Source: Trypanosoma brucei
Taxonomy: Eukaryota
DNA: 64,000 nucleotides
Direction: 5' to 3'
NCBI GenBank assembly: GCA_000002445.1
Contig: CP000071.1
Span: forward strand, 1,440,001 to 1,504,000
The notes beneath the pieces are model-generated. The model had not been told where the DNA came from and ran no database searches. It saw only the letters and a list, made by a program, of their open reading frames with translations. This document shows, piece by piece, positions 20,551-54,137 of this stretch (the stretch's first letter is position 1; every line of letters starts with the position of its first letter). Both the position numbers and the translations under genes were made by a program.

Positions 20551-22203
20551 ATGGGATCCTGCTGCGGAGCGAACGCGATGCCAGTGGTGGATAATAGTGA
20601 GAACTCTAAACCCCAACGGAAGCGCAATGTTACGTTTTCAACGTTTCCCGCCCTCGATATTGAAGTTCACCGACCCGGGGGGGATGCGGACAGTATGCTC
20701 AGTCTAACCCGCAGAAGCAGTACTTTTCCAATGGATCAGACCATGTACACTGTTAGTGAGTTCAACGCCACCTTAGCAGACACTGTGCGCAGTTTAAATC
20801 TAACTCCCCGGGATGATGTTGGTCGAAGCCTGGTGACGAACGGTCTGGATGAGGTTAGTGAGCGAGACGTTGACAGCTTCGTAGATGACGTTCTTCATAT
20901 AGGTCTGTTAGATTCACTTGTTACGGTTGAGGAGCGCGTCGGCAACGGTTACGGCCTTGGCAGCAGGTGCCTATCTCCCTCTGGGGGACTCGGAGGACCT
21001 GTGTGGCTTTCGAAGGAGCAGTTGCAGTACTTAGAGAGAGCTCCGGACACTTCAGAGCGACTTGCTCGTCTAGCAGAGCTTGAAGAAATGTCGCGCCAAG
21101 AGATTTTTGCGGCGTGGTTGATGAATTCTACCCTCCTGAAGATGGGGGCGGCACGGGTTATACCAACAATCCGGCGTTGCCGAGCGGCGAATGAGAAGGC
21201 GTCTAAGAATAGAGATGTCATCGTTATCCACGCCAAAGACATTAACGTGCGTGCTAACGACGATCCAGGCCTAGAGAGAAACTGGAACTCGCCCCGATTT
21301 GAGGCTCTTGGCCACACTGGCTCCTTTTCGCCTCCTGATGAGTCCGGTGTGGATGAACCGTCACCCGAAGTAACGGAGCATTACCAGATATTGGCGTTGA
21401 CGGGACGCGCCGTCAACGTAAAGAACAAGGTTCGTTCGCACATCGTATCGGATACGTGGGATTTCCTGTCGAGATGCGAAGCCTCCGAGGTTCTTAACAA
21501 GGGCGATGTGTTTTTTAGGTTCGTCTGTAGTCCGATTACGAACTTAAGTGAAGATAGTCTCAAAATTATCGACACCTTGATAAACCTGTCCAGCTTCAGA
21601 GATGAGTTGGGGGAGAACAACGTGCCAAGAGTAGATGTCTATTCTAATGAAGAGCAACGGAAATACGTCTCTATTTTGGTGAAAACGATGAATTTGTTAC
21701 CAGGTGTGTCTATTTCCAGCATAACACCCGAACTTGTTGCAAGCCTTGACTATCAGCGTAGCTGTCAGCCTGGTGAAAATAAGTTTGAACCGAGCGATGA
21801 CCCACACACTTTTAGGCAGGTCAAGACCTTGATTAGGTTTATATATAGTATAACCATTCAAATGAAGGTAAGCGAAATAACAGATTCCAACGTGCTCCTT
21901 AATCTCAAGGAGATTGATGGCATGGTTCCCGCCAAAGCGTTGATGCTGGAGCGAACAAAAAAAAACATAATGTCATCCGACTCCACGGTGAAGGTTCGTT
22001 CTTTTCTGCTGTATTATCCTGTGAATGAGGGCGTGCTCGTTAATAACCAAACCATTGTTATAAACAAGTCTCTCCCTCGTGTCGCTTCGAAGCTTCTCCA
22101 GACGTTTGGTTCCCAAGGCGCCTCGGATGCAGTGAAAACGGCTGTGCAAACACGAAATTACTTCTTTAATCGCTTCGGGGATGGCAGGACGGGGGGAATT
22201 TGA
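20551..22203 (+). CDS. Hypothetical protein, 550 aa, with N-terminal MGSCCG (predicted N-myristoylation plus S-palmitoylation signal)
   Basis: Track ORF starts with TTG at 20548. ATG at 20551 gives MGSCCGANAMP. Gly2 with Cys4/Cys5 matches the dual-acylation pattern of trypanosome flagellar-membrane proteins such as calflagins. Confidence 0.65.
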   Translation: MGSCCGANAMPVVDNSENSKPQRKRNVTFSTFPALDIEVHRPGGDADSMLSLTRRSSTFPMDQTMYTVSEFNATLADTVRSLNLTPRDDVGRSLVTNGLDEVSERDVDSFVDDVLHIGLLDSLVTVEERVGNGYGLGSRCLSPSGGLGGPVWLSKEQLQYLERAPDTSERLARLAELEEMSRQEIFAAWLMNSTLLKMGAARVIPTIRRCRAANEKASKNRDVIVIHAKDINVRANDDPGLERNWNSPRFEALGHTGSFSPPDESGVDEPSPEVTEHYQILALTGRAVNVKNKVRSHIVSDTWDFLSRCEASEVLNKGDVFFRFVCSPITNLSEDSLKIIDTLINLSSFRDELGENNVPRVDVYSNEEQRKYVSILVKTMNLLPGVSISSITPELVASLDYQRSCQPGENKFEPSDDPHTFRQVKTLIRFIYSITIQMKVSEITDSNVLLNLKEIDGMVPAKALMLERTKKNIMSSDSTVKVRSFLLYYPVNEGVLVNNQTIVINKSLPRVASKLLQTFGSQGASDAVKTAVQTRNYFFNRFGDGRTGGI

Positions 22204-22595
22204 TTGTTATATTATTATTATTATTTTTTTTTTTTTTTGGTACCCCCTTCATTCCCTCCAATTTTTTTTGTGTGTGTGCATAGACGTCTGATATTGTGCC
22301 AATGCAACCAGCTGATGGATGTAGCTCGCGGTACATACTTTGCGTGCACCGTGGTGGTGCCGCTACATGTAAGCAGAGGAATGGAGCGATGAGAAAACAA
22401 GCGAGCGAAGAAAAGGTAGAGGGCTATAGGTTATAGGAGTGGGGCAGATAATTCGTTATATTTATTTTTTGTTGTCAATATTGTTGTCTTTCTTTAGCGC
22501 TGTTGTGGATGCGTGGGTGGCTTCGGTCTTGTTGCTGATGGGTCCGAATGTGTTGTGCACGTTCTTACACATCCAATTGTTCTTTCGCTACGTAT

Positions 22596-22606
<11 letters not shown>

Positions 22607-22640
<34 letters not shown>
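22607..22640. repeat. (CA)n dinucleotide microsatellite in intergenic region
   Basis: Direct read: cacacaca... about 17 units. Confidence 0.9.
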
Positions 22641-22643
<3 letters not shown>

Positions 22644-30222: not shown

Positions 30223-33200
30223 ATGCTGCGGCATACGACGTCCATATTTGCCCCTACGTGTCGAACCGTCGTTTGCCGGACTTACAACCACCCGGTAGCG
30301 AGTAGGAGAAAGACCGGCAACAGACAAAAGAAGGGCGTTTGCGACAATGTTCGTGACATAATCGGCATGACCATCCCCGAGGCGCGGCTGCGTCGCGACC
30401 GTATTTCAGCAGCTTCCTTCGACCGTTGCATTGAGGAAAATGCTCGAAATATCATTGGCCTTGGCTCTAAAGAATCTCCTGGACTCGAGACCCGCTTCGG
30501 TGCTCGGTATGATCGTAGGGATGTGCGTTTTGTTGGTCGGGCCGATGACGTCCGGCGATTCACCGAGGAGGCGGCGAGGTCAAGCGCCGCCGGACATTGG
30601 CCAATGGGAGTGACATTCGTGCGGGGTGAGTTCGGTGCTGCATCCGGGGGCGATGGCCATCGGTTGAGCGCTGAACCAACGAGCCATGATTTGGGCCGCG
30701 CACCAATGGATGTGGCTAGCGAGGGAACTAATCCAATGCTGCGGCGTGTGTTGAGGCGGTGCAAAGAAGGGGTTTCCTCGTCACTGGCTGGAGTTCTTGC
30801 CGCTGCTGGCCCTGAGAAAGCACCGGCTGAAGGAACCACCTCTGAGATGAACCCTAGGAAGAACGTGGCACCGTCGACGGCTTCTACACGCCCACAAACG
30901 GCATCAGTAGTGAGTCCTGCGAGGCGGCGTGTCGAGAAGCGCTTACGGCGGCGATCAGCCGTGTTGTTGAGAGGCGGAGAATCGTTACACCCATGTTCCC
31001 TGCAGGGCGGATGCGGCTCACAGGGTGGCTCTTCGAACTGCGCGTTTGTTACACATCCATCTACCGCTTGCGTTCAGTGGTTGCGGCTGGGCCGTTGCGA
31101 GGAAGCGCGTCTATGTAGCTGCCCGTGGTGGCACCCTGCGGAGATGGAGGTACTGAAACCGGAGTTTCTTCACAGTTACTTCTTCGGCATTGCCGAAGGA
31201 GATGAGAGGGGGCTACGACCCTTGAGGGAAAGCTGTGCTGCGGTGGGGAGGCTCCTACAGATGTTTCTGGACATTATCGTTTCCACGATATTCGAAGCAT
31301 TGAGGATGGAGACGACAAATAACGAGGAGGTGGTGACGGTTGGGCGCGTTGAGGACCTTCTATCTCGTGCTGGTAAAGGGAAGGGTGGAAACTCCGCCTG
31401 CATTTGTAACCTAAAGGATGGTTTGCTCTCTGTGGAGCGGGAACTGTGCGTAAGTGCACTAATGGGTGATGATGAGGGGGTAACCTGCACGGAAAGTGCT
31501 GACGGCGAGACATCGGGGCCTCATTTCGATGGCGAGTCGACTTCTTTGCTCCGCAACATGGAACACTACCATAAGCTGCACGCCGATGCGGACAAAGAAG
31601 TGCGAAACCTCCTTGTTATATTTCGCGCGTACTTTACGATGTGTGATGAACGTGGGGGAAACAGTGGCCGCGTCATCGTGAGCGCTTCTCTTACTCAATG
31701 GCTGCTCAGGCACGCTGCGAGTTGTTGCAGTCAGGGAGAATGTTACTCGGCTGGACTGACCCCAATCAAGCTGTTTGAGGAGGCTTCAGTTGTATTATTG
31801 AAGGATAGACTTCATAGGTGTGGCATTGACATATGCGGCAGGAGTTGCAAGCAATCGAGCATCACACCTTCCGACCGTTCATCGCCGTTATTGTTGCTGC
31901 AACATGTCTCTTTATTGTCGAATATTGTAACGTTTGGTGCGAACGCAGATCAGGCGATGCTGACCGAGCCGGGGCAACAATCACTTTTGTATAGTGTCTT
32001 GCTTTGCCTTCAATCAGGTGGGGTGTCCTGTTGGCTTGGTGACTCTCCGCAGCAGCAGTACGTTAGTTGTTGGTTATTCATGCAATCTTTACTCTCGGTG
32101 GCTTCGGTATGCCTACTGCGGTTGGGCAGTCGAATCTTCTCGTTTGCACGCCCCGTGCTTGTGGAAGTCGGGCGGCGTTTGGCAAAGGATATTGAGGTCC
32201 AGTTCGAGGCGAAGTTGCTGCGGGCATCCGGATGGGCTCCGTGGACTGATGCACAGATGTTCGGTGAACAGCACCGGGCCATTTACACTGCGTCCGACTA
32301 CGCCCGGACGCACATGCCTGTCGTTGCTCGCGCATTCACAGCAGCAATGCTCAACATACTATTACTGAACACATTGAGAGCAGCGAACCGCGAGGTGAAT
32401 TTGTGTCGCAGTCCCGTTGCTGCCGTTATTTTCAGCGGGGAAAAGGCTGAGGAATACAAGGGCTGTGCAGTAAAAGGTGGATTAGACTCACCTATGGAGT
32501 GTGTTCAGCGCGAGTCGCAATTACGCGGTGGGCCCAGCGTGCGGCGCAGTATGCGTCCCTATGCACAAGAGGCCATGTCATTAATAGCTCTTTTGCATGA
32601 TGAAGGTACCCAAATGCTTGCTCGACGGCAGGCGCTCATGGAAGAGTTCTTGTGCAGGCGGAAAGATTTCGATGACTGTGGAGCAAACGAGCTCAACAAC
32701 CCCCAAAACCGAAGAAGAAGCTCCGGGGGCGTTATCTTGCCATCATTCCACGACGAAAAGATTCATGTTTTTGAGAAATTACTTCCACACGGGTCCATCT
32801 CCGTTTGTGGTGACGGTGTCGGATTGCTTCTTCGCGTGCTACTGGAGGGCGGGTCTGCATACGGGGCGTTGCGCCTCGCCGCATCTGCGGTTCACGTAGG
32901 AAGAGCGCTAAGGTTTGCGGCGCGCCAGCCCATGCCACACGTTCATCTAGGCGAAAAGGTAAAGCACAAACACATGCGAAACAGTAGAACAGGTCGCAAG
33001 TACACTGTTCGTGTCCGTGTCCCTGTTCTTCGTAGCACTGATCCCGACATGGAATGCCGAATGCACCGAAAGGGACAAAGTGGAGGAGCGCACCCCATTG
33101 CATTGTATTTGCGGCTCAACCAGCAAACAGTGGAAGAGATGGTCCGCCTCGCACTTCGCATGGGGGGCGCTGGAGAGCGTCTACTGAGCGGCGTAGTTGA

Positions 33201-34602
33201 CGACTGCGTACGGGGTTTACTCCTGGATTACGGGAAGTCACGCTGTTTACCTGCGGTAAAAGGCTCGGATGTGCACGATGATGGGGCGATTGCAGGAGAT
33301 TTAGGCGCACGCGAGCTGCAGGGAATCTTGTCCGTTGTAGTGGGTACCAACAGTAATTCGCAGCTTTTGTCCGTGGCTGATGAAGCCCAGCAGCGCGCCG
33401 TGGAGGGTTACCGTGTCCCTCCAACAGCATTGTTGGTCGAGCTCCTTGTGGCCCTTACACCTCAAGCGGGGCGCGGGGTGCACGAGCGGTGCACACGTTT
33501 ATGCGCAATGGACCCTCATCTAGTAAGCGAAAGAACACTCCTGGCGAAGCAGTGCCACACGGCAGGCGAAAGTTTTGCTAGGGCAAATGACGATGCTTCC
33601 GCGGCATGGTTGAGTTACCTCAACTCAGGAGTTGCTGTCGATTCAGGGGCGGTTAGTGTTTCGTTTCTCCGAAAGGAGGCTGAGCGACTACCTGTGGTTG
33701 ATAGTGTTGCTGCGTCGTTGAACAGGCCCCCGCTTCCTCGCAACGTAGAGGAGCTAAGAAGACAGCTCACGCAAACGGTTGATGCCGTCGGTTGTGCTCA
33801 GGACAGGCGACAAAACGAGGCAGCGTGGAGTTTGTCACGGGGGTTTGCCGTACGCGTGCAAGACCCAAACTCAATGCATGGAGTTTGGTGGGCTGTGATG
33901 TGTGGAGCAATTCTTGGTGCAAGCGACGACGCGCTGGCCGGCAAACAACGACCATGGGCACGGTTGCTTCTGCGCAACGCCTTCCACGTGGCCCAACAGT
34001 TCGCAGCACCACAGGATCGCGCCCGCTACGGCCAGGCAACGGTAAGGGCATTTATTCTCTCCGGCATATTTGAATTGACATCGACACCCCGTAGCCCTAC
34101 CGATGTTAGTTGTCGAAGGAAACACCTACCGTGGCAGCTCCCTGTAGTTCACGACCTCAACCTCTTTTTAGCTGCCCAGGTGCACCTCGCACAGCGGCTA
34201 CACAAACTGTATCCCAACAGTGTGATCACGAATGATTGTGGTATTAACAAACAACTGCAACTTTTTGGTCATCTAAAATTGTCGACAAAACTTGAAGACC
34301 ACCACATTGAGGCGACTGCGTGTTGGAGTCTACTTGAACCATTAACTGAACACAGCGAGTTAGCGATAACATGGCTGCAGGAATCACTGTTTCATACTCC
34401 TCAAGGACTGCTCGCATGGATCATCGCCTGCACTAACAACAATTGCAACCAAACGGCTTTTGTGATGGCCGCATGGGTGACACTTTTATGCCGCACTGAA
34501 AAGGTAGGTGGGACATTCAATAAACATGTCCAACAACATCTACGGTCCAAATGCACAAAAAAACAAGTGGAACAACTTCTGTTGCTTGATCACTGCAATT
34601 AA
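30223..34602 (+). CDS. Conserved hypothetical protein, 1459 aa
   Basis: ATG verified at 30223 (ttatgctgcgg = MLR). Long uninterrupted ORF in cluster orientation with no recognisable domain. An alternative downstream start, MTIPEARL (about aa 49), cannot be excluded. Confidence 0.6.
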   Translation: MLRHTTSIFAPTCRTVVCRTYNHPVASRRKTGNRQKKGVCDNVRDIIGMTIPEARLRRDRISAASFDRCIEENARNIIGLGSKESPGLETRFGARYDRRDVRFVGRADDVRRFTEEAARSSAAGHWPMGVTFVRGEFGAASGGDGHRLSAEPTSHDLGRAPMDVASEGTNPMLRRVLRRCKEGVSSSLAGVLAAAGPEKAPAEGTTSEMNPRKNVAPSTASTRPQTASVVSPARRRVEKRLRRRSAVLLRGGESLHPCSLQGGCGSQGGSSNCAFVTHPSTACVQWLRLGRCEEARLCSCPWWHPAEMEVLKPEFLHSYFFGIAEGDERGLRPLRESCAAVGRLLQMFLDIIVSTIFEALRMETTNNEEVVTVGRVEDLLSRAGKGKGGNSACICNLKDGLLSVERELCVSALMGDDEGVTCTESADGETSGPHFDGESTSLLRNMEHYHKLHADADKEVRNLLVIFRAYFTMCDERGGNSGRVIVSASLTQWLLRHAASCCSQGECYSAGLTPIKLFEEASVVLLKDRLHRCGIDICGRSCKQSSITPSDRSSPLLLLQHVSLLSNIVTFGANADQAMLTEPGQQSLLYSVLLCLQSGGVSCWLGDSPQQQYVSCWLFMQSLLSVASVCLLRLGSRIFSFARPVLVEVGRRLAKDIEVQFEAKLLRASGWAPWTDAQMFGEQHRAIYTASDYARTHMPVVARAFTAAMLNILLLNTLRAANREVNLCRSPVAAVIFSGEKAEEYKGCAVKGGLDSPMECVQRESQLRGGPSVRRSMRPYAQEAMSLIALLHDEGTQMLARRQALMEEFLCRRKDFDDCGANELNNPQNRRRSSGGVILPSFHDEKIHVFEKLLPHGSISVCGDGVGLLLRVLLEGGSAYGALRLAASAVHVGRALRFAARQPMPHVHLGEKVKHKHMRNSRTGRKYTVRVRVPVLRSTDPDMECRMHRKGQSGGAHPIALYLRLNQQTVEEMVRLALRMGGAGERLLSGVVDDCVRGLLLDYGKSRCLPAVKGSDVHDDGAIAGDLGARELQGILSVVVGTNSNSQLLSVADEAQQRAVEGYRVPPTALLVELLVALTPQAGRGVHERCTRLCAMDPHLVSERTLLAKQCHTAGESFARANDDASAAWLSYLNSGVAVDSGAVSVSFLRKEAERLPVVDSVAASLNRPPLPRNVEELRRQLTQTVDAVGCAQDRRQNEAAWSLSRGFAVRVQDPNSMHGVWWAVMCGAILGASDDALAGKQRPWARLLLRNAFHVAQQFAAPQDRARYGQATVRAFILSGIFELTSTPRSPTDVSCRRKHLPWQLPVVHDLNLFLAAQVHLAQRLHKLYPNSVITNDCGINKQLQLFGHLKLSTKLEDHHIEATACWSLLEPLTEHSELAITWLQESLFHTPQGLLAWIIACTNNNCNQTAFVMAAWVTLLCRTEKVGGTFNKHVQQHLRSKCTKKQVEQLLLLDHCN

Positions 34603-34817: not shown

Positions 34818-36620
34818 ATGAGCGGAAAGGAAGTTGAAGGTGTTGTGAGTCCTGCGGACCAGCAGCAGCCAGCCGTCCCGGAGGTAACAGATATCACGCT
34901 GGAGGCCGCCCGCAAGCAGAAAATTCACAACCTGAAGTTGAAGACCGCCTGCCTTTCGAATGAGGAATATGTCCAGGACCTGCACGTATCCGAGTGGAGT
35001 GAGACGCAGAAGCAGAAGCTGCAGGCTGCACACGAGAAAGCGCATGAATTGCTTGCCTCAGTGGAGGGTGGGACGAAGTGGAGCCTGACAGAGGCGTATG
35101 ACATCAAGAAGCTGATGCGCGTCTGTGGTCTTGAGATGTCTGTGCGTGAACTGTACAAGCCGGAGGACAAGCCACAGTTCATGGAGATTGTTGCACTCAA
35201 GAAGACAATGAACGAACTGAAGCAACATCACAACAAGACTCGCACGGTGTCTTTCACCGGCATGATCGACAATGCCATCGCCAAACTGGAGAAAATCGAA
35301 GACGAACTGCGCCGGTCCCAGCTCGACGCTTCTGAGATGGCGCAAGTTCCTGTGGCTGCACTGAAGAATATTGAGGACACGATGAACGTGGCTGTTGTGC
35401 AGACGGCTCTTCTTGGGAACGAGGAGCAGATCAAAGCCCAACTTGCAGCCGTTGAGAAGGCGAACGAAATCCGTAATGTTGCCATTGCCGATGGTGAGAT
35501 GGCGATTGCTGAGGAACAGTATTACATTAAGGCGCAGCTGTTGGAGCACCTTGTGGAGCTTGTGGCCGACAAGTTTCGCATCATTGGGCAAACTGAGGAT
35601 GAGAATAAGAGCTTCAGTAAGATCCACGAGGTACAGAAGAAGTCATTTCAGGAATCTGCCTCAATCAAGGACGCGAAGCGCCGCCTTAAGCAACACTGCG
35701 AGGACGACCTACGTAACCTTCACGATGCCATCCAGAAAGCTGACTTGGAGGACGCCGAAGCCATGAAACGGTTCGCCACGCAGAAGGAGAAGTCGGAGCG
35801 GTTCATCCACGAGAACCTCGACAAACAGGACGAGGCATGGCGTCGCATTCAGGAACTGGAGCGCGTGTTGCAGCGCCTTGGGACGGAGCGTTTTGAAGAG
35901 GTGAAGCGCCGTATTGAGGAGAACGACCGCGAGGAGAAGCGTAAGGTGGAGTACCAACAGTTCCTCGATGTATGTGGCCAGCATAAAAAGCTGCTGGAAC
36001 TGTCTGTGTACAACTGCGACCTTGCGCTTCGCTGCATGGGTATGCTGGAGGAGATCGTAGCCGAGGGCTGCAGTGCCGTCAAGTCACGCCATGACAAGAC
36101 GAACGATGAGTTGTCTGACCTTCGGCTGCAGGTGCACCAGGAGTACCTGGAGGCATTCCGTCGCCTGTACAAAACTCTTGGCCAGCTTGTGTACAAGAAA
36201 GAAAAGCGCCTGGAGGAGATTGATCGCAACATCCGCACCACACACATTCAACTGGAGTTTGCCATTGAGACCTTTGACCCCAACGCGAAACTACACTCCG
36301 ACAAGAAGAAAGACCTATACAAACTTCGTGCGCAGGTGGAGGAAGAGTTGGAGATGCTGAAGGACAAGATGGCGCAGGCGTTGGAGATGTTTGGACCTAC
36401 TGAGGATGCGCTGAACCAGGCTGGTATCGATTTTGTTCACCCTGCTGAGGAGGTTGAGTCCGGCAACATGGATCGCCGCAGCAAGATGGTGGAGTACCGT
36501 GCACACCTGGCGAAGCAGGAGGAGGTGAAGATTGCCGCGGAGCGCGAGGAGCTGAAACGATCTAAGATGCTCCAGAGCCAGCAGTACCGCGGCCGCACGA
36601 TGCCGCAGATCACTCAGTAG
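34818..36620 (+). CDS. PFR2: Paraflagellar rod protein 2 (PFR2/PFR-A), copy 1
   Basis: The 600-aa product MSGKEVEGVVSPADQQQPAVPEV...QYRGRTMPQITQ is recognisable as the T. brucei 69-kDa major paraflagellar rod protein. ATG verified. Confidence 0.95.
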   Translation: MSGKEVEGVVSPADQQQPAVPEVTDITLEAARKQKIHNLKLKTACLSNEEYVQDLHVSEWSETQKQKLQAAHEKAHELLASVEGGTKWSLTEAYDIKKLMRVCGLEMSVRELYKPEDKPQFMEIVALKKTMNELKQHHNKTRTVSFTGMIDNAIAKLEKIEDELRRSQLDASEMAQVPVAALKNIEDTMNVAVVQTALLGNEEQIKAQLAAVEKANEIRNVAIADGEMAIAEEQYYIKAQLLEHLVELVADKFRIIGQTEDENKSFSKIHEVQKKSFQESASIKDAKRRLKQHCEDDLRNLHDAIQKADLEDAEAMKRFATQKEKSERFIHENLDKQDEAWRRIQELERVLQRLGTERFEEVKRRIEENDREEKRKVEYQQFLDVCGQHKKLLELSVYNCDLALRCMGMLEEIVAEGCSAVKSRHDKTNDELSDLRLQVHQEYLEAFRRLYKTLGQLVYKKEKRLEEIDRNIRTTHIQLEFAIETFDPNAKLHSDKKKDLYKLRAQVEEELEMLKDKMAQALEMFGPTEDALNQAGIDFVHPAEEVESGNMDRRSKMVEYRAHLAKQEEVKIAAEREELKRSKMLQSQQYRGRTMPQITQ

Positions 36621-36860
36621 CGCTGCGCTTAAATGTCTTTCATTATAATCAATGTATAACCTTTATGTAGTATTTCAATCTATGCCGCTGTGTACGTGCA
36701 CTGCGGTGCCTATCCTTCGGCATTAGAGAGTCACTGTTTGTGTAGATCGTAGCTGCATGTCTGACATCTGGTTCATTAGTGCCGTTTTGAGTCTGCACTG
36801 TTGTGCAACTTGATATGCATCACTGCACACCAACCGTGTGTTTCCTCCTTTGGGTGCACC

Positions 36861-36907
36861 CTTTAATCCTTGTCTTCTCCTTTTTTGTCTCTTTCCCCCT
36901 CGAAAAG
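36861..36907 (+). promoter_or_regulatory. Polypyrimidine tract plus AG dinucleotide: candidate trans-splicing acceptor region for the downstream PFR2 copy, repeated in every spacer at +2154n
   Basis: The tract ctttaatccttgtcttctccttttttgtctctttccccctc is followed by aaaag, about 65 nt upstream of the ATG. From established kinetoplastid mRNA processing, a polyY tract directs spliced-leader addition at a downstream AG and polyadenylation of the upstream mRNA. The exact acceptor AG is not determinable from sequence. Confidence 0.5.
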
Positions 36908-36971
36908 GTGTCAAACTACTGCCGCATAAACTACGGTTATCCCAAATTTAAGAGAAAGCAATAAAGCATCA

Positions 36972-38774: not shown

Positions 38775-39125
38775 CGCTGCGCTTAAGTGTCTTTCATTAT
38801 AATCAATGTATAACCTTTATGTAGTATTTCAATCTATGCCGCTGTGTACGTGCACTGCGGTGCCTATCCTTCGGCATTAGAGAGTCACTGTTTGTGTAGA
38901 TCGTAGCTGCATGTCTGACATCTGGTTCATTAGTGCCGTTTTGAGTCTGCACTGTTGTGCAACTTGATATGCATCACTGCACACCAACCGTGTGTTTCCT
39001 CCTTTGGGTGCACCCTTTAATCCTTGTCTTCTCCTTTTTTGTCTCTTTCCCCCTCGAAAAGGTGTCAAACTACTGCCGCATAAACTACGGTTATCCCAAA
39101 TTTAAGAGAAAGCAATAAAGCATCA

Positions 39126-40928
39126 ATGAGCGGAAAGGAAGTTGAAGGTGTTGTGAGTCCTGCGGACCAGCAGCAGCCAGCCGTCCCGGAGGTAACAGAT
39201 ATCACGCTGGAGGCCGCCCGCAAGCAGAAAATTCACAACCTGAAGTTGAAGACCGCCTGCCTTTCGAATGAGGAATATGTCCAGGACCTGCACGTATCCG
39301 AGTGGAGTGAGACGCAGAAGCAGAAGCTGCAGGCTGCACACGAGAAAGCGCATGAATTGCTTGCCTCAGTGGAGGGTGGGACGAAGTGGAGCCTGACAGA
39401 GGCGTATGACATCAAGAAGCTGATGCGCGTCTGTGGTCTTGAGATGTCTGTGCGTGAACTGTACAAGCCGGAGGACAAGCCACAGTTCATGGAGATTGTT
39501 GCACTCAAGAAGACAATGAACGAACTGAAGCAACATCACAACAAGACTCGCACGGTGTCTTTCACCGGCATGATCGACAATGCCATCGCCAAACTGGAGA
39601 AAATCGAAGACGAACTGCGCCGGTCCCAGCTCGACGCTTCTGAGATGGCGCAAGTTCCTGTGGCTGCACTGAAGAATATTGAGGACACGATGAACGTGGC
39701 TGTTGTGCAGACGGCTCTTCTTGGGAACGAGGAGCAGATCAAAGCCCAACTTGCAGCCGTTGAGAAGGCGAACGAAATCCGTAATGTTGCCATTGCCGAT
39801 GGTGAGATGGCGATTGCTGAGGAACAGTATTACATTAAGGCGCAGCTGTTGGAGCACCTTGTGGAGCTTGTGGCCGACAAGTTTCGCATCATTGGGCAAA
39901 CTGAGGATGAGAATAAGAGCTTCAGTAAGATCCACGAGGTACAGAAGAAGTCATTTCAGGAATCTGCCTCAATCAAGGACGCGAAGCGCCGCCTTAAGCA
40001 ACACTGCGAGGACGACCTACGTAACCTTCACGATGCCATCCAGAAAGCTGACTTGGAGGACGCCGAAGCCATGAAACGGTTCGCCACGCAGAAGGAGAAG
40101 TCGGAGCGGTTCATCCACGAGAACCTCGACAAACAGGACGAGGCATGGCGTCGCATTCAGGAACTGGAGCGCGTGTTGCAGCGCCTTGGGACGGAGCGTT
40201 TTGAAGAGGTGAAGCGCCGTATTGAGGAGAACGACCGCGAGGAGAAGCGTAAGGTGGAGTACCAACAGTTCCTCGATGTATGTGGCCAGCATAAAAAGCT
40301 GCTGGAACTGTCTGTGTACAACTGCGACCTTGCGCTTCGCTGCATGGGTATGCTGGAGGAGATCGTAGCCGAGGGCTGCAGTGCCGTCAAGTCACGCCAT
40401 GACAAGACGAACGATGAGTTGTCTGACCTTCGGCTGCAGGTGCACCAGGAGTACCTGGAGGCATTCCGTCGCCTGTACAAAACTCTTGGCCAGCTTGTGT
40501 ACAAGAAAGAAAAGCGCCTGGAGGAGATTGATCGCAACATCCGCACCACACACATTCAACTGGAGTTTGCCATTGAGACCTTTGACCCCAACGCGAAACT
40601 ACACTCCGACAAGAAGAAAGACCTATACAAACTTCGTGCGCAGGTGGAGGAAGAGTTGGAGATGCTGAAGGACAAGATGGCGCAGGCGTTGGAGATGTTT
40701 GGACCTACTGAGGATGCGCTGAACCAGGCTGGTATCGATTTTGTTCACCCTGCTGAGGAGGTTGAGTCCGGCAACATGGATCGCCGCAGCAAGATGGTGG
40801 AGTACCGTGCACACCTGGCGAAGCAGGAGGAGGTGAAGATTGCCGCGGAGCGCGAGGAGCTGAAACGATCTAAGATGCTCCAGAGCCAGCAGTACCGCGG
40901 CCGCACGATGCCGCAGATCACTCAGTAG
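39126..40928 (+). CDS. PFR2: Paraflagellar rod protein 2, copy 3
   Basis: Translation identical to copy 1. Confidence 0.95.
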   Translation: MSGKEVEGVVSPADQQQPAVPEVTDITLEAARKQKIHNLKLKTACLSNEEYVQDLHVSEWSETQKQKLQAAHEKAHELLASVEGGTKWSLTEAYDIKKLMRVCGLEMSVRELYKPEDKPQFMEIVALKKTMNELKQHHNKTRTVSFTGMIDNAIAKLEKIEDELRRSQLDASEMAQVPVAALKNIEDTMNVAVVQTALLGNEEQIKAQLAAVEKANEIRNVAIADGEMAIAEEQYYIKAQLLEHLVELVADKFRIIGQTEDENKSFSKIHEVQKKSFQESASIKDAKRRLKQHCEDDLRNLHDAIQKADLEDAEAMKRFATQKEKSERFIHENLDKQDEAWRRIQELERVLQRLGTERFEEVKRRIEENDREEKRKVEYQQFLDVCGQHKKLLELSVYNCDLALRCMGMLEEIVAEGCSAVKSRHDKTNDELSDLRLQVHQEYLEAFRRLYKTLGQLVYKKEKRLEEIDRNIRTTHIQLEFAIETFDPNAKLHSDKKKDLYKLRAQVEEELEMLKDKMAQALEMFGPTEDALNQAGIDFVHPAEEVESGNMDRRSKMVEYRAHLAKQEEVKIAAEREELKRSKMLQSQQYRGRTMPQITQ

Positions 40929-41279
40929 CGCTGCGCTTAAGTGTCTTTCATTATAATCAATGTATAACCTTTATGTAGTATTTCAATCTATGCCGCTGTG
41001 TACGTGCACTGCGGTGCCTATCCTTCGGCATTAGAGAGTCACTGTTTGTGTAGATCGTAGCTGCATGTCTGACATCTGGTTCATTAGTGCCGTTTTGAGT
41101 CTGCACTGTTGTGCAACTTGATATGCATCACTGCACACCAACCGTGTGTTTCCTCCTTTGGGTGCACCCTTTAATCCTTGTCTTCTCCTTTTTTGTCTCT
41201 TTCCCCCTCGAAAAGGTGTCAAACTACTGCCGCATAAACTACGGTTATCCCAAATTTAAGAGAAAGCAATAAAGCATCA

Positions 41280-43082
41280 ATGAGCGGAAAGGAAGTTGAA
41301 GGTGTTGTGAGTCCTGCGGACCAGCAGCAGCCAGCCGTCCCGGAGGTAACAGATATCACGCTGGAGGCCGCCCGCAAGCAGAAAATTCACAACCTGAAGT
41401 TGAAGACCGCCTGCCTTTCGAATGAGGAATATGTCCAGGACCTGCACGTATCCGAGTGGAGTGAGACGCAGAAGCAGAAGCTGCAGGCTGCACACGAGAA
41501 AGCGCATGAATTGCTTGCCTCAGTGGAGGGTGGGACGAAGTGGAGCCTGACAGAGGCGTATGACATCAAGAAGCTGATGCGCGTCTGTGGTCTTGAGATG
41601 TCTGTGCGTGAACTGTACAAGCCGGAGGACAAGCCACAGTTCATGGAGATTGTTGCACTCAAGAAGACAATGAACGAACTGAAGCAACATCACAACAAGA
41701 CTCGCACGGTGTCTTTCACCGGCATGATCGACAATGCCATCGCCAAACTGGAGAAAATCGAAGACGAACTGCGCCGGTCCCAGCTCGACGCTTCTGAGAT
41801 GGCGCAAGTTCCTGTGGCTGCACTGAAGAATATTGAGGACACGATGAACGTGGCTGTTGTGCAGACGGCTCTTCTTGGGAACGAGGAGCAGATCAAAGCC
41901 CAACTTGCAGCCGTTGAGAAGGCGAACGAAATCCGTAATGTTGCCATTGCCGATGGTGAGATGGCGATTGCTGAGGAACAGTATTACATTAAGGCGCAGC
42001 TGTTGGAGCACCTTGTGGAGCTTGTGGCCGACAAGTTTCGCATCATTGGGCAAACTGAGGATGAGAATAAGAGCTTCAGTAAGATCCACGAGGTACAGAA
42101 GAAGTCATTTCAGGAATCTGCCTCAATCAAGGACGCGAAGCGCCGCCTTAAGCAACACTGCGAGGACGACCTACGTAACCTTCACGATGCCATCCAGAAA
42201 GCTGACTTGGAGGACGCCGAAGCCATGAAACGGTTCGCCACGCAGAAGGAGAAGTCGGAGCGGTTCATCCACGAGAACCTCGACAAACAGGACGAGGCAT
42301 GGCGTCGCATTCAGGAACTGGAGCGCGTGTTGCAGCGCCTTGGGACGGAGCGTTTTGAAGAGGTGAAGCGCCGTATTGAGGAGAACGACCGCGAGGAGAA
42401 GCGTAAGGTGGAGTACCAACAGTTCCTCGATGTATGTGGCCAGCATAAAAAGCTGCTGGAACTGTCTGTGTACAACTGCGACCTTGCGCTTCGCTGCATG
42501 GGTATGCTGGAGGAGATCGTAGCCGAGGGCTGCAGTGCCGTCAAGTCACGCCATGACAAGACGAACGATGAGTTGTCTGACCTTCGGCTGCAGGTGCACC
42601 AGGAGTACCTGGAGGCATTCCGTCGCCTGTACAAAACTCTTGGCCAGCTTGTGTACAAGAAAGAAAAGCGCCTGGAGGAGATTGATCGCAACATCCGCAC
42701 CACACACATTCAACTGGAGTTTGCCATTGAGACCTTTGACCCCAACGCGAAACTACACTCCGACAAGAAGAAAGACCTATACAAACTTCGTGCGCAGGTG
42801 GAGGAAGAGTTGGAGATGCTGAAGGACAAGATGGCGCAGGCGTTGGAGATGTTTGGACCTACTGAGGATGCGCTGAACCAGGCTGGTATCGATTTTGTTC
42901 ACCCTGCTGAGGAGGTTGAGTCCGGCAACATGGATCGCCGCAGCAAGATGGTGGAGTACCGTGCACACCTGGCGAAGCAGGAGGAGGTGAAGATTGCCGC
43001 GGAGCGCGAGGAGCTGAAACGATCTAAGATGCTCCAGAGCCAGCAGTACCGCGGCCGCACGATGCCGCAGATCACTCAGTAG
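41280..43082 (+). CDS. PFR2: Paraflagellar rod protein 2, copy 4
   Basis: Translation identical to copy 1. Confidence 0.95.
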   Translation: MSGKEVEGVVSPADQQQPAVPEVTDITLEAARKQKIHNLKLKTACLSNEEYVQDLHVSEWSETQKQKLQAAHEKAHELLASVEGGTKWSLTEAYDIKKLMRVCGLEMSVRELYKPEDKPQFMEIVALKKTMNELKQHHNKTRTVSFTGMIDNAIAKLEKIEDELRRSQLDASEMAQVPVAALKNIEDTMNVAVVQTALLGNEEQIKAQLAAVEKANEIRNVAIADGEMAIAEEQYYIKAQLLEHLVELVADKFRIIGQTEDENKSFSKIHEVQKKSFQESASIKDAKRRLKQHCEDDLRNLHDAIQKADLEDAEAMKRFATQKEKSERFIHENLDKQDEAWRRIQELERVLQRLGTERFEEVKRRIEENDREEKRKVEYQQFLDVCGQHKKLLELSVYNCDLALRCMGMLEEIVAEGCSAVKSRHDKTNDELSDLRLQVHQEYLEAFRRLYKTLGQLVYKKEKRLEEIDRNIRTTHIQLEFAIETFDPNAKLHSDKKKDLYKLRAQVEEELEMLKDKMAQALEMFGPTEDALNQAGIDFVHPAEEVESGNMDRRSKMVEYRAHLAKQEEVKIAAEREELKRSKMLQSQQYRGRTMPQITQ

Positions 43083-43433
43083 CGCTGCGCTTAAATGTCT
43101 TTCATTATAATCAATGTATAACCTTTATGTAGTATTTCAATCTATGCCGCTGTGTACGTGCACTGCGGTGCCTATCCTTCGGCATTAGAGAGTCACTGTT
43201 TGTGTAGATCGTAGCTGCATGTCTGACATCTGGTTCATTAGTGCCGTTTTGAGTCTGCACTGTTGTGCAACTTGATATGCATCACTGCACACCAACCGTG
43301 TGTTTCCTCCTTTGGGTGCACCCTTTAATCCTTGTCTTCTCCTTTTTTGTCTCTTTCCCCCTCGAAAAGGTGTCAAACTACTGCCGCATAAACTACGGTT
43401 ATCCCAAATTTAAGAGAAAGCAATAAAGCATCA

Positions 43434-45236
43434 ATGAGCGGAAAGGAAGTTGAAGGTGTTGTGAGTCCTGCGGACCAGCAGCAGCCAGCCGTCCCGGAGG
43501 TAACAGATATCACGCTGGAGGCCGCCCGCAAGCAGAAAATTCACAACCTGAAGTTGAAGACCGCCTGCCTTTCGAATGAGGAATATGTCCAGGACCTGCA
43601 CGTATCCGAGTGGAGTGAGACGCAGAAGCAGAAGCTGCAGGCTGCACACGAGAAAGCGCATGAATTGCTTGCCTCAGTGGAGGGTGGGACGAAGTGGAGC
43701 CTGACAGAGGCGTATGACATCAAGAAGCTGATGCGCGTCTGTGGTCTTGAGATGTCTGTGCGTGAACTGTACAAGCCGGAGGACAAGCCACAGTTCATGG
43801 AGATTGTTGCACTCAAGAAGACAATGAACGAACTGAAGCAACATCACAACAAGACTCGCACGGTGTCTTTCACCGGCATGATCGACAATGCCATCGCCAA
43901 ACTGGAGAAAATCGAAGACGAACTGCGCCGGTCCCAGCTCGACGCTTCTGAGATGGCGCAAGTTCCTGTGGCTGCACTGAAGAATATTGAGGACACGATG
44001 AACGTGGCTGTTGTGCAGACGGCTCTTCTTGGGAACGAGGAGCAGATCAAAGCCCAACTTGCAGCCGTTGAGAAGGCGAACGAAATCCGTAATGTTGCCA
44101 TTGCCGATGGTGAGATGGCGATTGCTGAGGAACAGTATTACATTAAGGCGCAGCTGTTGGAGCACCTTGTGGAGCTTGTGGCCGACAAGTTTCGCATCAT
44201 TGGGCAAACTGAGGATGAGAATAAGAGCTTCAGTAAGATCCACGAGGTACAGAAGAAGTCATTTCAGGAATCTGCCTCAATCAAGGACGCGAAGCGCCGC
44301 CTTAAGCAACACTGCGAGGACGACCTACGTAACCTTCACGATGCCATCCAGAAAGCTGACTTGGAGGACGCCGAAGCCATGAAACGGTTCGCCACGCAGA
44401 AGGAGAAGTCGGAGCGGTTCATCCACGAGAACCTCGACAAACAGGACGAGGCATGGCGTCGCATTCAGGAACTGGAGCGCGTGTTGCAGCGCCTTGGGAC
44501 GGAGCGTTTTGAAGAGGTGAAGCGCCGTATTGAGGAGAACGACCGCGAGGAGAAGCGTAAGGTGGAGTACCAACAGTTCCTCGATGTATGTGGCCAGCAT
44601 AAAAAGCTGCTGGAACTGTCTGTGTACAACTGCGACCTTGCGCTTCGCTGCATGGGTATGCTGGAGGAGATCGTAGCCGAGGGCTGCAGTGCCGTCAAGT
44701 CACGCCATGACAAGACGAACGATGAGTTGTCTGACCTTCGGCTGCAGGTGCACCAGGAGTACCTGGAGGCATTCCGTCGCCTGTACAAAACTCTTGGCCA
44801 GCTTGTGTACAAGAAAGAAAAGCGCCTGGAGGAGATTGATCGCAACATCCGCACCACACACATTCAACTGGAGTTTGCCATTGAGACCTTTGACCCCAAC
44901 GCGAAACTACACTCCGACAAGAAGAAAGACCTATACAAACTTCGTGCGCAGGTGGAGGAAGAGTTGGAGATGCTGAAGGACAAGATGGCGCAGGCGTTGG
45001 AGATGTTTGGACCTACTGAGGATGCGCTGAACCAGGCTGGTATCGATTTTGTTCACCCTGCTGAGGAGGTTGAGTCCGGCAACATGGATCGCCGCAGCAA
45101 GATGGTGGAGTACCGTGCACACCTGGCGAAGCAGGAGGAGGTGAAGATTGCCGCGGAGCGCGAGGAGCTGAAACGATCTAAGATGCTCCAGAGCCAGCAG
45201 TACCGCGGCCGCACGATGCCGCAGATCACTCAGTAG
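43434..45236 (+). CDS. PFR2: Paraflagellar rod protein 2, copy 5
   Basis: Translation identical to copy 1; the downstream flank differs from the inter-copy spacer. Confidence 0.95.
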   Translation: MSGKEVEGVVSPADQQQPAVPEVTDITLEAARKQKIHNLKLKTACLSNEEYVQDLHVSEWSETQKQKLQAAHEKAHELLASVEGGTKWSLTEAYDIKKLMRVCGLEMSVRELYKPEDKPQFMEIVALKKTMNELKQHHNKTRTVSFTGMIDNAIAKLEKIEDELRRSQLDASEMAQVPVAALKNIEDTMNVAVVQTALLGNEEQIKAQLAAVEKANEIRNVAIADGEMAIAEEQYYIKAQLLEHLVELVADKFRIIGQTEDENKSFSKIHEVQKKSFQESASIKDAKRRLKQHCEDDLRNLHDAIQKADLEDAEAMKRFATQKEKSERFIHENLDKQDEAWRRIQELERVLQRLGTERFEEVKRRIEENDREEKRKVEYQQFLDVCGQHKKLLELSVYNCDLALRCMGMLEEIVAEGCSAVKSRHDKTNDELSDLRLQVHQEYLEAFRRLYKTLGQLVYKKEKRLEEIDRNIRTTHIQLEFAIETFDPNAKLHSDKKKDLYKLRAQVEEELEMLKDKMAQALEMFGPTEDALNQAGIDFVHPAEEVESGNMDRRSKMVEYRAHLAKQEEVKIAAEREELKRSKMLQSQQYRGRTMPQITQ

Positions 45237-48988: not shown

Positions 48989-49697
48989 TTGTTGGGTTGT
49001 GTTGCACTTCCTCTTGTCACTACTTCCCTTTGATATCTGTTGATTTTTTTGACATCACTATCTGACCGATCTGGATCAACGTCGACGTTGGTTCCGTTTT
49101 CTCGTTTGCCGTATTACCACGGGTGAGCACTCACTCACCGACTCATCTATGCGTCGTGCTCGAGTGAGCATTTTTAAATTCATAGCGGGCTGGGGCGGTT
49201 GCATTATCATCTGAAGTACCTTTGGCCATATTGTGTCTGCTTTCCTCCCCCTTTTTTATATTTTTTCTTGCTGGCTTTCTGTTGTGTGTGCTGATGTGTG
49301 ACATATTGTGGTTCCTCGTCCATTATTGTGTTCTCTTTTCTTGAATTTTCGTTGCCTTTCGTGTTACTGCCGGCGCTAACTTTACCTGAGCTGGGAAAGG
49401 ACGCACACGCGCCGGTGTGATCATAGGGGAGGAAAGAAGCTCAAGCTTGACTGACCTTCTATCGAATAGGAGCAGGGGGAAGAGGGTCGAATAGCGTTGG
49501 CGGCAGTGTTGTGGATCCTTTGACATCCGTGAAGTGAGCACGACCAAACACATCCGTTCCTGCGTGAAAATTGGCGAAACGCCTGTGGTTTTGTTACGGC
49601 AGCAGATTTGTGGGCTCTATTCTCACTTGAGCTGTGACGTCGGGCCAGCCGCGCTCTGTCCATTATTATCACTTTTGCTGCTCGCGTGTGTGTGTTA

Positions 49698-51896: not shown

Positions 51897-54137
51897 ATGG
51901 GTGCCTGTGTTTCAGATGGAAGCAAGCAGAAGCCCGACTTCGTAAATGTAGGTGGCCAGAGTGGTCCCTTTGCGCCAGTGACGGATCATATAGTGGGGAA
52001 CACCAACGGTCCTGCAACAGTGCCGCAGGTGAACAAAAAGTCTGCACCGACGGTGAAGGAACCCACTCTTCCGAGGATTAGGGTTTTTACGGAGGTGGAT
52101 GATTCTGAGGCCAACAATATCGACCTCGTCCCTGGTAGCGGTTGCAGTGTTGTGAAGGGCAAGTACCGAATGACGCCCATAGTAGCATTCAAACCTTTCG
52201 CCGCTAGGCGCTTGCGGGAGCGAGCTGTCAAGGTAATTCGAGGCAGTTACTACTCTGAAGAGGCCCATGAGGAGCCACCGCAAGCGTGTGCGGTGACAAG
52301 TTGCCCATTTGGCGATGAGGAAAAGGAGGGTGCGAGTGGTACCAAAAAATGCAATCAACCGGAGTTTTCATTCGCTCTGGATACGTCGACTGATACGGAA
52401 GAGGGGCTTTCGTCTGGCTGCGACACAAGTGCTTCACCGCGCGACCGGTCTTTGGCAATGTGTGGTGGAGAGAAGGGATGCAGGAACGAGCCGGCTGATG
52501 AGTGCACACCAAACAGGAGAGGCTCCCTGCCCAGTGGAGTGGGTGGTGACGGCCCACAGTCACATAAGAAGGGAATAGATGTTGTTGATAAGTTAAATAC
52601 TCCTGGAACTGCCCGGTCAGTCAATGCGATAACTACAGAGCCGAAGTCCACACCACGATTGAGCCGCGAGGACTTGATTCTTCTTGGTTCAAAACGCTTG
52701 AAAAAGCGTGTGGAAGACCTGCGGCTGATTGAGCACCAAATGAAGGATGACGGTAATTGCCAATTTCGTGCAATCTCACATCAAATATTTGGCTCTCAGG
52801 AGTACCATGAGCTTGTTCGGGTGCACGTGGTGACGTACATGAAGAGCGTTCGGGATTCGTTCGATTGCTTCCTCGGGACTACTGAGGACGCCGATCACTA
52901 TTATGCCGATATGCTCAAGAATGGGACATGGGGTGACGAGCTCACACTACGCGCTGCAAGTGATAGCCTTTTCATCAATATTCACATCCTTTCGTCGGAA
53001 GAGCAAAACTATTATATTACTTATAACCCTAGCCCAGATGCACCCACTCCCCCGGCATTTTTAGTTGACGTTGCAACGATGCGGCAGGATCGACAAGAGG
53101 CTTTCTCGACTTCAGTGGCTTCGGTTTGTGTCTCACCTTCTCTCAGTGCACGTGGTAGCTGGAATGGAGGCGGTGGAAAAAAATCTCTGGCTACACCGCG
53201 GGGCCCTGTGGATCAACTTGGCTTGGCAGGGATAAATAGGAACTTTCGACCTATCCACGAGGAGGTTAACGTTGTTGAGCTACAGCGGGAGGTACAGCGC
53301 AAACTGGCTGCAAGTACAATTCGGAATACCACTTTGCCGGTACCCGAACCCCTGTTACCTTTCAAGGCTGTTATTGAGCAGAATGTAGTGGTTCCACCAA
53401 CAGCGGCACCGCAGCCGAAGCCAACTTTTGTTGACGCGCCGAAGAGCCCTGTGAAAACTGTCAGGATTGAATTGTCGCCGCGCGAGGTGTCTTTTAATGC
53501 AAAAAATACAAGCGTGATCTTCGTGTGTGCAAGGAAGAAGCCCCGACGGAAACGGACGAGCCGAGGCAGGTCGAAGACTCGCGGCGGCAGAATAGTTGGT
53601 CTTCCAAAGAGGCACCCAATAATGAGACCAATTTCCTTTTCCTCGTCACCAATAACGGCACGGAGAAGGCCAAGGTGTAGGTCGGCGTTAGTGCGAAATC
53701 TTTCGCCAAGGCGAAGCAAAAAGTTGCGCTCCAAGTCGAGTGCGATGCCAGCGTCTCTTCAGCTCCCTCCTTTCGCTTCTCCGTCTGAGAGTCCCGTTAA
53801 TCCCCGTCTCTCTTCTCCTGAACCCGCTCCCGTCATCGAGTTACCAGGTACCGCAAGCTTTATTTTAGTTTCTCCACGGTCATCTGATAGCGATATGGTG
53901 AAGCGTCTGTCACTGGGAAGCGCGTCTGTGCCGCACTCCAGCCCGCCACCGCGTTCAGCCGTTTGTGAAGGAAGTGCCTCACCGAAGGTAAGTGTTAGTC
54001 CATCTGAGAAGGAGGAGTTGGAGTCGTGTTTTTTGTCGGAGGCTCCCAATGCGCCCATTGATATTTTTCTTTCATACCTCTCCCCTGTTCATTACAACGC
54101 GCTGAGCGTGGATACAATCTCGAGACCTGTTGAATAA
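51897..54137 (+). CDS. OTU-domain cysteine protease (putative deubiquitinase) with N-terminal MGACVS dual-acylation signal and S/P/R-rich C-terminal tail
   Basis: ATG verified at 51897 (atgggtgcctgtgtttca). The OTU core lies around nt 52730-53000: DDGNCQFRAISHQIFGSQEYHELVRVHVVTYM ... WGDELTLRAASDSLFINIHILS. This shows the Cys box (DGNC) and His box. The N-terminus has Gly2, Cys4 and Ser6. Confidence 0.75.
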   Translation: MGACVSDGSKQKPDFVNVGGQSGPFAPVTDHIVGNTNGPATVPQVNKKSAPTVKEPTLPRIRVFTEVDDSEANNIDLVPGSGCSVVKGKYRMTPIVAFKPFAARRLRERAVKVIRGSYYSEEAHEEPPQACAVTSCPFGDEEKEGASGTKKCNQPEFSFALDTSTDTEEGLSSGCDTSASPRDRSLAMCGGEKGCRNEPADECTPNRRGSLPSGVGGDGPQSHKKGIDVVDKLNTPGTARSVNAITTEPKSTPRLSREDLILLGSKRLKKRVEDLRLIEHQMKDDGNCQFRAISHQIFGSQEYHELVRVHVVTYMKSVRDSFDCFLGTTEDADHYYADMLKNGTWGDELTLRAASDSLFINIHILSSEEQNYYITYNPSPDAPTPPAFLVDVATMRQDRQEAFSTSVASVCVSPSLSARGSWNGGGGKKSLATPRGPVDQLGLAGINRNFRPIHEEVNVVELQREVQRKLAASTIRNTTLPVPEPLLPFKAVIEQNVVVPPTAAPQPKPTFVDAPKSPVKTVRIELSPREVSFNAKNTSVIFVCARKKPRRKRTSRGRSKTRGGRIVGLPKRHPIMRPISFSSSPITARRRPRCRSALVRNLSPRRSKKLRSKSSAMPASLQLPPFASPSESPVNPRLSSPEPAPVIELPGTASFILVSPRSSDSDMVKRLSLGSASVPHSSPPPRSAVCEGSASPKVSVSPSEKEELESCFLSEAPNAPIDIFLSYLSPVHYNALSVDTISRPVE

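Follow-up and report, generated by a model that had tools for sequence, protein, structure and literature searches.

In kinetoplastids, dual acylation is a known device for targeting proteins to membranes. The calflagins of Trypanosoma brucei and FCaBP of T. cruzi (Godsel and Engman 1999), like CAP5.5, HASPB and PPEF (PMC4372256), share a Met-Gly start that is followed within a few residues by a Cys. They are myristoylated first and palmitoylated then, and the second step fixes them stably to the inner leaflet of the flagellar or pellicular membrane. Here, we analyze two T. brucei proteins with N-termini of the same kind, both encoded on the plus strand of a stretch of 64,000 nucleotides (contig CP000071.1, positions 1,440,001 to 1,504,000; hereafter the window, from whose first letter all positions are counted). 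The first, gene A (20551..22203; 550 aa, stop included, from the open reading frame (ORF) and its translation), begins with MGSCCG, the second, an OTU-like cysteine protease (51897..54137; 746 aa, stop included), with MGACVS; read from the window DNA, both N-termini are exactly as the original prediction had given them. FCaBP begins with MGACGSK, very close to MGACVSD of the OTU protein, and yeast Vac8 begins with MGSCCSCL, a textbook SH4-type triple acylation signal with myristoylated Gly2 and palmitoylated Cys4/5/7. The first five residues of Vac8 are those of gene A, but its cargo, armadillo repeats, is unrelated. The cargo of the calflagin/FCaBP type likewise differs, as it consists of EF-hands, calpain-like domains and phosphatases and not of an OTU protease or a START-like domain. 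Altogether, we consider it rather probable that both T. brucei proteins are N-myristoylated, palmitoylated and tethered to the inner leaflet, gene A presenting a START-fold domain at the flagellar pocket and the OTU protein being a competent OTUD5-like deubiquitinase (DUB).

For the cargo, other systems are closer. Arabidopsis OTU11 and OTU12 act at the plasma membrane as OTU-family DUBs; anionic lipids enhance their K63-directed activity, and the two have a modulating effect on the endosomal degradation of PIN2 (PMC9653390). The likeness is functional only. OTU11/12 comprise 219-245 aa with an uninterrupted OTU domain; they bind the membrane through polybasic motifs inside this domain and, even with Gly2 present in OTU12, were judged not to need myristoylation (PMC9653390). 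In human OTUD5/DUBA, and also in OTUD1 and OTUD3, the same DGxCxFRA ... HYN motifs are found as in the trypanosome OTU protein, yet the OTUD5 domain is contiguous, whereas the kinetoplastid one carries an insert of 295-494 aa before its His strand. OTUD5 itself is a soluble enzyme with no known lipid anchor that becomes active upon phosphorylation. Finally, the START domains of CERT, STARD4/10 and PCTP and the wider SRPBCC/Bet v 1 group have the same helix-grip fold as our model of gene A, a β-sheet around a long C-terminal helix; START proteins are lipid binders, and additional modules, PH for instance, often direct them to membranes.

Gene A and the OTU protein are identical to Q57UV8 and Q57UH7 of T. 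b. brucei TREU927, respectively. The OTU-like protease is published as Tb927.8.5050 (PMC10998879, PMC2771046), and gene numbers counted back from named neighbors identify gene A as Tb927.8.4940. The ATG of gene A at 20551 (ttgATGggatcctgctgcgga) is followed by GGA TCC TGC TGC GGA and that of the OTU gene at 51897 (gcgcATGggtgcctgtgtttca) by GGT GCC TGT GTT TCA. Ahead of both ATGs the frame is soon closed, by TAA at a distance of 9 nt in gene A and by TAG at 6 nt in the OTU gene, so that no start further upstream is possible for either protein, and no further ATG was found in the ~240 nt upstream of gene A or in the 300 nt upstream of the OTU gene. Both N-termini, as well as that of the neighboring ARL6 (MGQSKT), match a PROSITE-type N-myristoylation pattern, G-{EDRKHPFYW}-x(2)-[STAGCN]-{P}. 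We predict N-myristoylation of Gly2 in both proteins, together with S-palmitoylation of Cys4/Cys5 in gene A (motif at 20551..20568) and of Cys4 in the OTU protein (motif at 51897..51914), where Ser6 is favored by N-myristoyltransferase (NMT).

Among T. cruzi database proteins, 5.26% start with MG (PMC4974623), and by a rough estimate MG with a Cys within the next few residues occurs in about 0.3-0.5% of proteins, which makes two cases among ~14 genes unusual. The decisive argument against chance, above frequency, is that both motifs are kept beside sequence that is not conserved. In gene A, M1, G2, C4 and C5 each reach a conservation of at least 90% across 26 orthologues that range from Trypanosoma via the Leishmaniinae to the free-living Bodo saltans, while the ~90 residues after MGxCC are poorly conserved. 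Two apparent exceptions are annotation errors: the L. donovani orthologue contains TMGVCCSDCK after an annotated extension of 41 residues, and T. vivax DNA encodes MGICCGKHT in frame directly upstream of the annotated MPIVDD start. Starts of gene-A orthologues are indeed misplaced in both directions, too far downstream in T. vivax and too far upstream in several Leishmania, and MGxCC is thereby hidden. Met10 is not the real start of gene A, because T. cruzi and T. conorhini have Leu at this position. In the OTU protein, M-G-x-C-x-S is invariant in 8 Trypanosoma species, whereas positions 3, 5 and 7 onward vary. Judged by these patterns, both motifs are under selection. Among kinetoplastids, however, the OTU motif is specific to Trypanosoma: in the Leishmaniinae OTUs, a shared and conserved extension (MFNSL.D.P.PVT.RP...) precedes M[LR]GGG, and with neither Gly2 nor Cys these proteins are not NMT substrates. 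Hence, the acylation signals announced by the original prediction are borne out, and a true start downstream of the MG motif, which it had named as one refutation, is very unlikely.

Experimental evidence comes from the T. cruzi N-myristoylome (Roberts and Fairlamb 2016, PMC4974623), in which both orthologues appear as "uncharacterized" only. K4EC97 (TCSYLVIO_001019; 847 aa, cluster member P0097 in our set) begins with MGGCSSSQ..., contains DGNCQFRALAQQ and is the T. cruzi OTU orthologue; it was azidomyristate-enriched in both label-free (LFQ) and stable-isotope (SILAC) quantification and belongs to the consistently enriched set, with a p value of 0.011 corrected for false discovery rate and 12 unique peptides, the NMT predictor rating it RELIABLE and Myristoylator negative (PMC4974623). 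For Q4DIG1, the orthologue of gene A, enrichment was lowered by the NMT inhibitor DDD85646 at 8xEC50 (H/L -1.10, flagged, Table S4), as judged from a single peptide (PMC4974623). The cross-species table of the same study lists no homologue of K4EC97 in the enriched sets of T. brucei, L. donovani or P. falciparum, and E9BD09, E9BCZ8 and the likely gene IDs LdBPK_161460, LdBPK_161560 and LdBPK_161570 were not found in the L. donovani YnMyr supplements. LdBPK_161580.1 from these supplements was not used, as its identity as gene-A orthologue could not be established. The consistently enriched T. cruzi set also contains a second deubiquitinase, the C19 ubiquitin hydrolase K4DVI8 (Table S7, PMC4974623), and lipid-anchored DUBs may thus form a small class in trypanosomes.

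As to localization, the original prediction had linked both N-termini to the flagellar or pellicular membrane. Source data of Fig. 5i of the TrypTag atlas list Tb927.8.4940 in the flagellar pocket 'ring' set; the flagellar membrane, the site of calflagin-type proteins, is not the documented site of gene A. The TrypTag supplement text has no entry for Tb927.8.5050, and the supplements of a structure-based kinetoplastid annotation paper mention neither gene. Elsewhere, transcripts of Tb927.8.5050 are reported to differ 2.2-fold between life-cycle stages, and its protein is recorded in Alba4 proximity labelling of unstressed cells (PMC10998879, PMC2771046).

Gene A consists of the acyl-anchor motif, a mostly disordered linker of ~260 aa, in which residues 155-200 form a long helix, and a C-terminal START/Bet v 1-like (SRPBCC-fold) domain (residues ~270-545; 21358..22185). 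An AlphaFold 2 (AF2) model built from the orthologue alignment gives this domain predicted local distance difference test (pLDDT) values of 85-94 and shows a β-sheet with a long C-terminal helix, i.e. the helix-grip fold of the START/SRPBCC superfamily; Foldseek returns the START domain of CERT (E 7e-6), followed by PYL receptors, STARD10 and PCTP. In contrast to this likeness in fold, similarity in sequence to the START families is not detectable: neither gene A nor 72 relatives have a Pfam match, so that membership of START (PF01852) is not given by sequence, and the gene-A profile finds no match among PDB sequences even at E 10. When the lipid-transfer proteins of L. donovani were surveyed by domain, one START protein, located elsewhere in the genome, was counted and the gene-A family was missed. 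Several orthologues (T. cruzi, T. grayi, T. theileri, T. rangeli and T. conorhini; P0004, P0005, P0008, P0009 and P0081) are labelled 'aspartate aminotransferase', a name that has no Pfam domain on record behind it and is apparently a propagated misannotation.

A profile search of 1.8 billion cluster representatives with the gene-A domain (~240 residues) yielded 209 relatives, with named examples in diplonemids, prokinetoplastids and one choanoflagellate. MG and a Cys (MGCCxS, MGSCS...) open 17 of the 130 representatives that have an initial Met; 13 have a hydrophobic helix at the start and ~4 a Cys-rich start (MACCVQLCPC, MLCCNIY...). The accessory Pfam domains in 72 further members are FYVE (3), C2 (2), PX (1) and PH (1), and no other kind occurs. 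That membrane-targeting devices are joined to the domain in so many relatives supports both that the acyl anchor is real and that gene A acts at a membrane surface. From the modelled fold, binding of a lipid or another hydrophobic ligand by the domain is the natural inference.

The assignment of the second protein to the OTU cysteine proteases, made in the original prediction, stands. Pfam OTU (PF02338, MEROPS C85) matches with 54.5 bits against a cut-off of 23.3 (E 2.3e-14), although only profile positions 3-93 of 128 are covered. This part of the domain (residues ~257-396, 52665..53084; Pfam residues 285-371) contains the Cys loop DDGNCQFRA with Asp285 (52749-52751) and Cys288 (52758-52760). 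The remaining C-terminal strand and His loop, PIDIFLSYLSPVHYNALS (54042..54134), with His732 at 54090-54092, follow only after an insert of ~320 aa (residues 397-715, 53085..54041) that is predicted to be disordered and, in T. brucei, is S/P-rich and polybasic. D285, G286, N287 and C288 are invariant in 16/16 kinetoplastid orthologues, as are I721, D722, L725, S726, Y727, H732, Y733 and N734 of the His block. The protein thus has the D-x-x-C loop and the C-terminal H-Y-(D/N) loop of the family, but not its contiguous compact catalytic domain; all 16 orthologues carry a poorly conserved insert of 295-494 aa between β-strands, ahead of the His strand. A K+R content of 16-17% is reached by the insert only in T. 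brucei and T. congolense, e.g. in ARKKPRRKRTSRGRSKTRGGR, and this polybasic stretch could bind acidic lipids or serve as a nuclear localization signal. We also noted a conserved helix in the insert (window ~53259-53321, residues ~455-475; EVD..ALQR.LQRKL..S.IR, with D458, Q463 and L470 invariant), which loosely resembles a ubiquitin-interacting helix without fitting the consensus of the ubiquitin-interacting motif. Separately, the N-region holds a motif (window ~52164-52220, residues ~90-108; Y..TP(I/V)V...PF....R) whose T93, P94, V96 and R107 are invariant from Trypanosoma to Leishmania.

OTUD5 is the closest solved structure by sequence (E 8e-12) and by Foldseek (E 2e-6), with OTUD1 and OTUD3 also found by fold. 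In the full-length AF2 model (mean pLDDT 43), the N-part of the domain reaches 80-90 and the insert stays below 50, and the His strand is not docked to the core. Deleting the insert does not extend the Pfam match, which still ends at profile position 93-94. Yet with the insert removed, hhalign aligns the kinetoplastid profile with the OTUD5 core over positions 2-121 of 121 (Prob 98.2%, E 5.9e-14) and pairs the trypanosome His loop SYLSPVHYNAL with SYHRNIHYNSV of OTUD5. Furthermore, a search with the spliced sequence found 55 unsplit OTU relatives, mostly of ~280-320 aa, that align across the junction with a coverage of 85-99% and an identity of 35-43%. Because both comparisons are collinear, we regard the domain as an intact OTUD5-like domain that has been split by an insertion.

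The unsplit OTU proteins, known from sequence alone, are the nearest sequence relatives of Tb927.8.5050, from which they differ by a short N-region and the lack of a large insert. They come from Tetraselmis, Chlorella, Chlamydomonas, Dunaliella, a diatom and Euglena, as well as from dinoflagellates and metagenomic sequences. MG with a Cys opens 14 of the 55 (MGCSVDK, MGCVGSS, MGCQSSK, MGACSGS, MGCCCGE...), MGCCCGE being the start in Chlorella and MGACSGS that of a cluster with Noctiluca; two more contain an internal MGC after an annotated extension, and five have an MxCC or similar start. An acyl anchor is therefore a recurrent and, probably, ancestral trait of this OTU subfamily, which Trypanosoma most likely kept and the Leishmaniinae lost. 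The closest unsplit relative, P0247 (286 aa, metagenome-derived, MGCSVDK), has an extra segment of ~25 aa at the position of the kinetoplastid insert, and this segment may represent an intermediate stage of the insertion. A Brassica match (P0058) considered as a relative of OTU9-12 was rejected, as it is an OTLD1/OTUD5-type protein.

Both genes lie close to the known PFR2 array, which in the window consists of five tandem head-to-tail ORFs of 600 aa each with a period of 2154 bp (34818..45236). On its upstream side follow a 1459-aa ORF, a kinesin and, further out, gene A; on its downstream side a weak IQ protein, a TRAPP/Bet3 subunit, an EMG1/NEP1 methyltransferase, the OTU protease, an Arf-like GTPase and an amidase. 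The Pfam scan of the window proteins confirms, besides OTU, the kinesin, the five PFR2 copies and the Arf-family ARL6 that had been named as neighbors; the match of the IQ-motif protein is weak, its 18.1 bits being below the Pfam cut-off of 20.3. The kinesin is published as Tb927.8.4950 and termed a cytokinesis kinesin, and ARL6/BBS3 (55996..56565; MGQSKTK, Pfam Arf, no Cys nearby), included here for context only, is Tb927.8.5060; T. brucei ARL6 is N-myristoylated by experiment and found on vesicles throughout the cell body (PMC3793860). The 1459-aa ORF (30223..34602), which separates the kinesin from the PFR2 array, is without a Pfam match at E 0.01 and by gene-number position is probably Tb927.8.4960.

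It could be asked whether this stretch, with PFR2, the kinesin, the IQ protein, ARL6 and two acylated proteins, is a functional cluster of flagellum or cilium genes. PFR2 and ARL6 are indeed related to the flagellum, and three of the ~14 plus-strand genes (gene A, OTU and ARL6) begin with MG. With 0.7-0.9 expected, however, this number is not significant, and the same stretch encodes trafficking, ribosome-biogenesis and other functions (TRAPP/Bet3, EMG1/NEP1, amidase). The vesicular distribution of ARL6 and the role of the kinesin in cytokinesis also fit poorly, and TrypTag saw no enrichment of organelle cohorts in particular gene arrays. We therefore hold a functional cluster to be extremely improbable; the flagellar theme looks coincidental, as the original prediction had itself allowed. 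Hardly better is the case for MG...C N-termini that result from annotation or chance, with translation starting at Met10 in gene A and Met92 in the OTU protein and no lipid attached. Some automatic gene calls do begin gene A at MPVV/MPIV (P0001, P0006), and the only pyrimidine-rich tract with AG seen by eye in the ~300 nt upstream lies directly before the OTU ATG, which would leave a very short 5' untranslated region; when this stretch was scanned by script for tracts of 8 nt or more without interruption, a single further one appeared, ~270 nt upstream of the OTU gene. Against this stand a motif that is in frame in more than 20 species, the Leu at position 10 and the T. vivax MGICCGKHT mentioned above, the stop codons just upstream with no ATG between, and the capture of both T. 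cruzi orthologues by azidomyristate (PMC4974623), so that a downstream start is very improbable.

More weight is due to two alternatives that leave the N-termini in place. The proteins might be N-myristoylated only, their Cys residues remaining unmodified, and bind membranes weakly and reversibly or use the myristate for protein-protein contacts. The documented capture concerns a myristate analogue and T. cruzi only (PMC4974623), the neighboring ARL6, which lacks such a Cys, is myristoylated and resides on vesicles (PMC3793860), the OTU protein was found near the cytoplasmic Alba4, and plant OTU12, despite its Gly2, binds the plasma membrane via polybasic motifs (PMC9653390). Nevertheless, Cys4 of the OTU protein and Cys4/Cys5 of gene A are conserved like Gly2 while flanking residues vary freely, MGC/MGCC or Cys-only N-termini recur in relatives of both families, and gene A is localized to a defined membrane domain in TrypTag. 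In calflagins, FCaBP, CAP5.5 and HASPB, moreover, the Cys beside the myristoyl-Gly is the palmitoylated residue. Myristoylation alone thus appears quite unlikely to us. Unlikely, too, is that the OTU protein is a pseudo-enzyme or a scaffold without DUB activity, in which the insert disrupts the domain and only binding of ubiquitin or of partners is left. AF2 does not assemble the His strand with the core, several OTUs are inactive in vitro, including plant OTU11/12 in a first study, and T. brucei MCA4 is described as a lipidated pseudopeptidase. But Asp285, Cys288 and His732 with their surrounding motifs have stayed invariant in 16/16 orthologues despite 300-500 unconserved insert residues, the domain, once spliced, matches OTUD5 and the unsplit homologues collinearly throughout, and plant OTU11/12 are active once lipids are present (PMC9653390).

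We thus return to dual acylation of both proteins, whose signals very probably hold them at the inner face of a membrane. In the mechanism we propose, the initiator Met would be removed and NMT would acylate Gly2 co-translationally; the weakly bound myristoylated protein would then be S-palmitoylated at the membrane by a DHHC palmitoyl transferase, on Cys4/Cys5 in gene A and on Cys4 in the OTU protein, resulting in stable inner-leaflet attachment. Gene A would display its START/Bet v 1-fold domain at the flagellar-pocket membrane on a mostly disordered tether of ~260 residues and would most likely bind or sense a lipid or another hydrophobic ligand there. Tb927.8.5050 would most likely strip ubiquitin from membrane-proximal substrates, for example ubiquitylated surface or endocytic cargo; action on such cargo is proposed by analogy with Arabidopsis OTU11/12. 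A more far-reaching joint reading, which we put forward only tentatively as possible rather than probable, is that Tb927.8.5050 represents an ancient, widespread and undescribed subfamily of N-terminally acylated OTUs (green algae, diatoms, dinoflagellates and Euglenozoa) that edits cargo ubiquitin at the cytoplasmic side of membranes and, in trypanosomes, controls surface-protein turnover at the pocket and endosomes. Tb927.8.4940, for its part, would define a new Pfam-less family of START-like lipid-binding domains. Every member would be joined to one of several exchangeable membrane anchors (myristoyl/palmitoyl, transmembrane helix, FYVE, C2, PX or PH), and at the pocket the tethered protein would sense or transfer lipids.

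Overall, we regard these findings as solid but incremental: published datasets, in which both proteins stand unnamed, already support their acylation in part, and dual acylation in kinetoplastids and membrane OTUs in plants were known before. The original prediction had called membrane-proximal DUBs a poorly characterized class in kinetoplastids. The present OTU is indeed uncharacterized there, and a DUB survey of Leishmania covers families C12, C19 and C65 only; from plants, membrane-associated OTU DUBs are already known (OTU11/12). To our knowledge, the acylated K4EC97/Tb927.8.5050 has not been described before as an OTU DUB of a widely acylated subfamily, nor have the split of its catalytic domain by an insert and the probable loss of its anchor in the Leishmaniinae. 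Likewise, we know of no earlier description of the START-like fold of Tb927.8.4940 or of the interchangeable membrane anchors of its Pfam-less family.

NMT is a validated drug target in trypanosomes, for which it is useful to know which substrates matter, and two substrates now gain a predicted function. As a candidate lipid-handling factor, the START-like pocket protein belongs to a family that domain-based surveys miss and that has no Pfam model despite ~200 distinct relatives, while the insert-split OTU domain offers an unusual natural test of how far the OTU fold tolerates interruption. In African trypanosomes, the flagellar pocket is the site of the ubiquitin-dependent turnover of surface proteins, which bears on drug uptake and immune evasion. 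A lipid-anchored deubiquitinase would be a direct candidate regulator of this turnover, a role for which the membrane-bound plant OTU11/12 provide a precedent.

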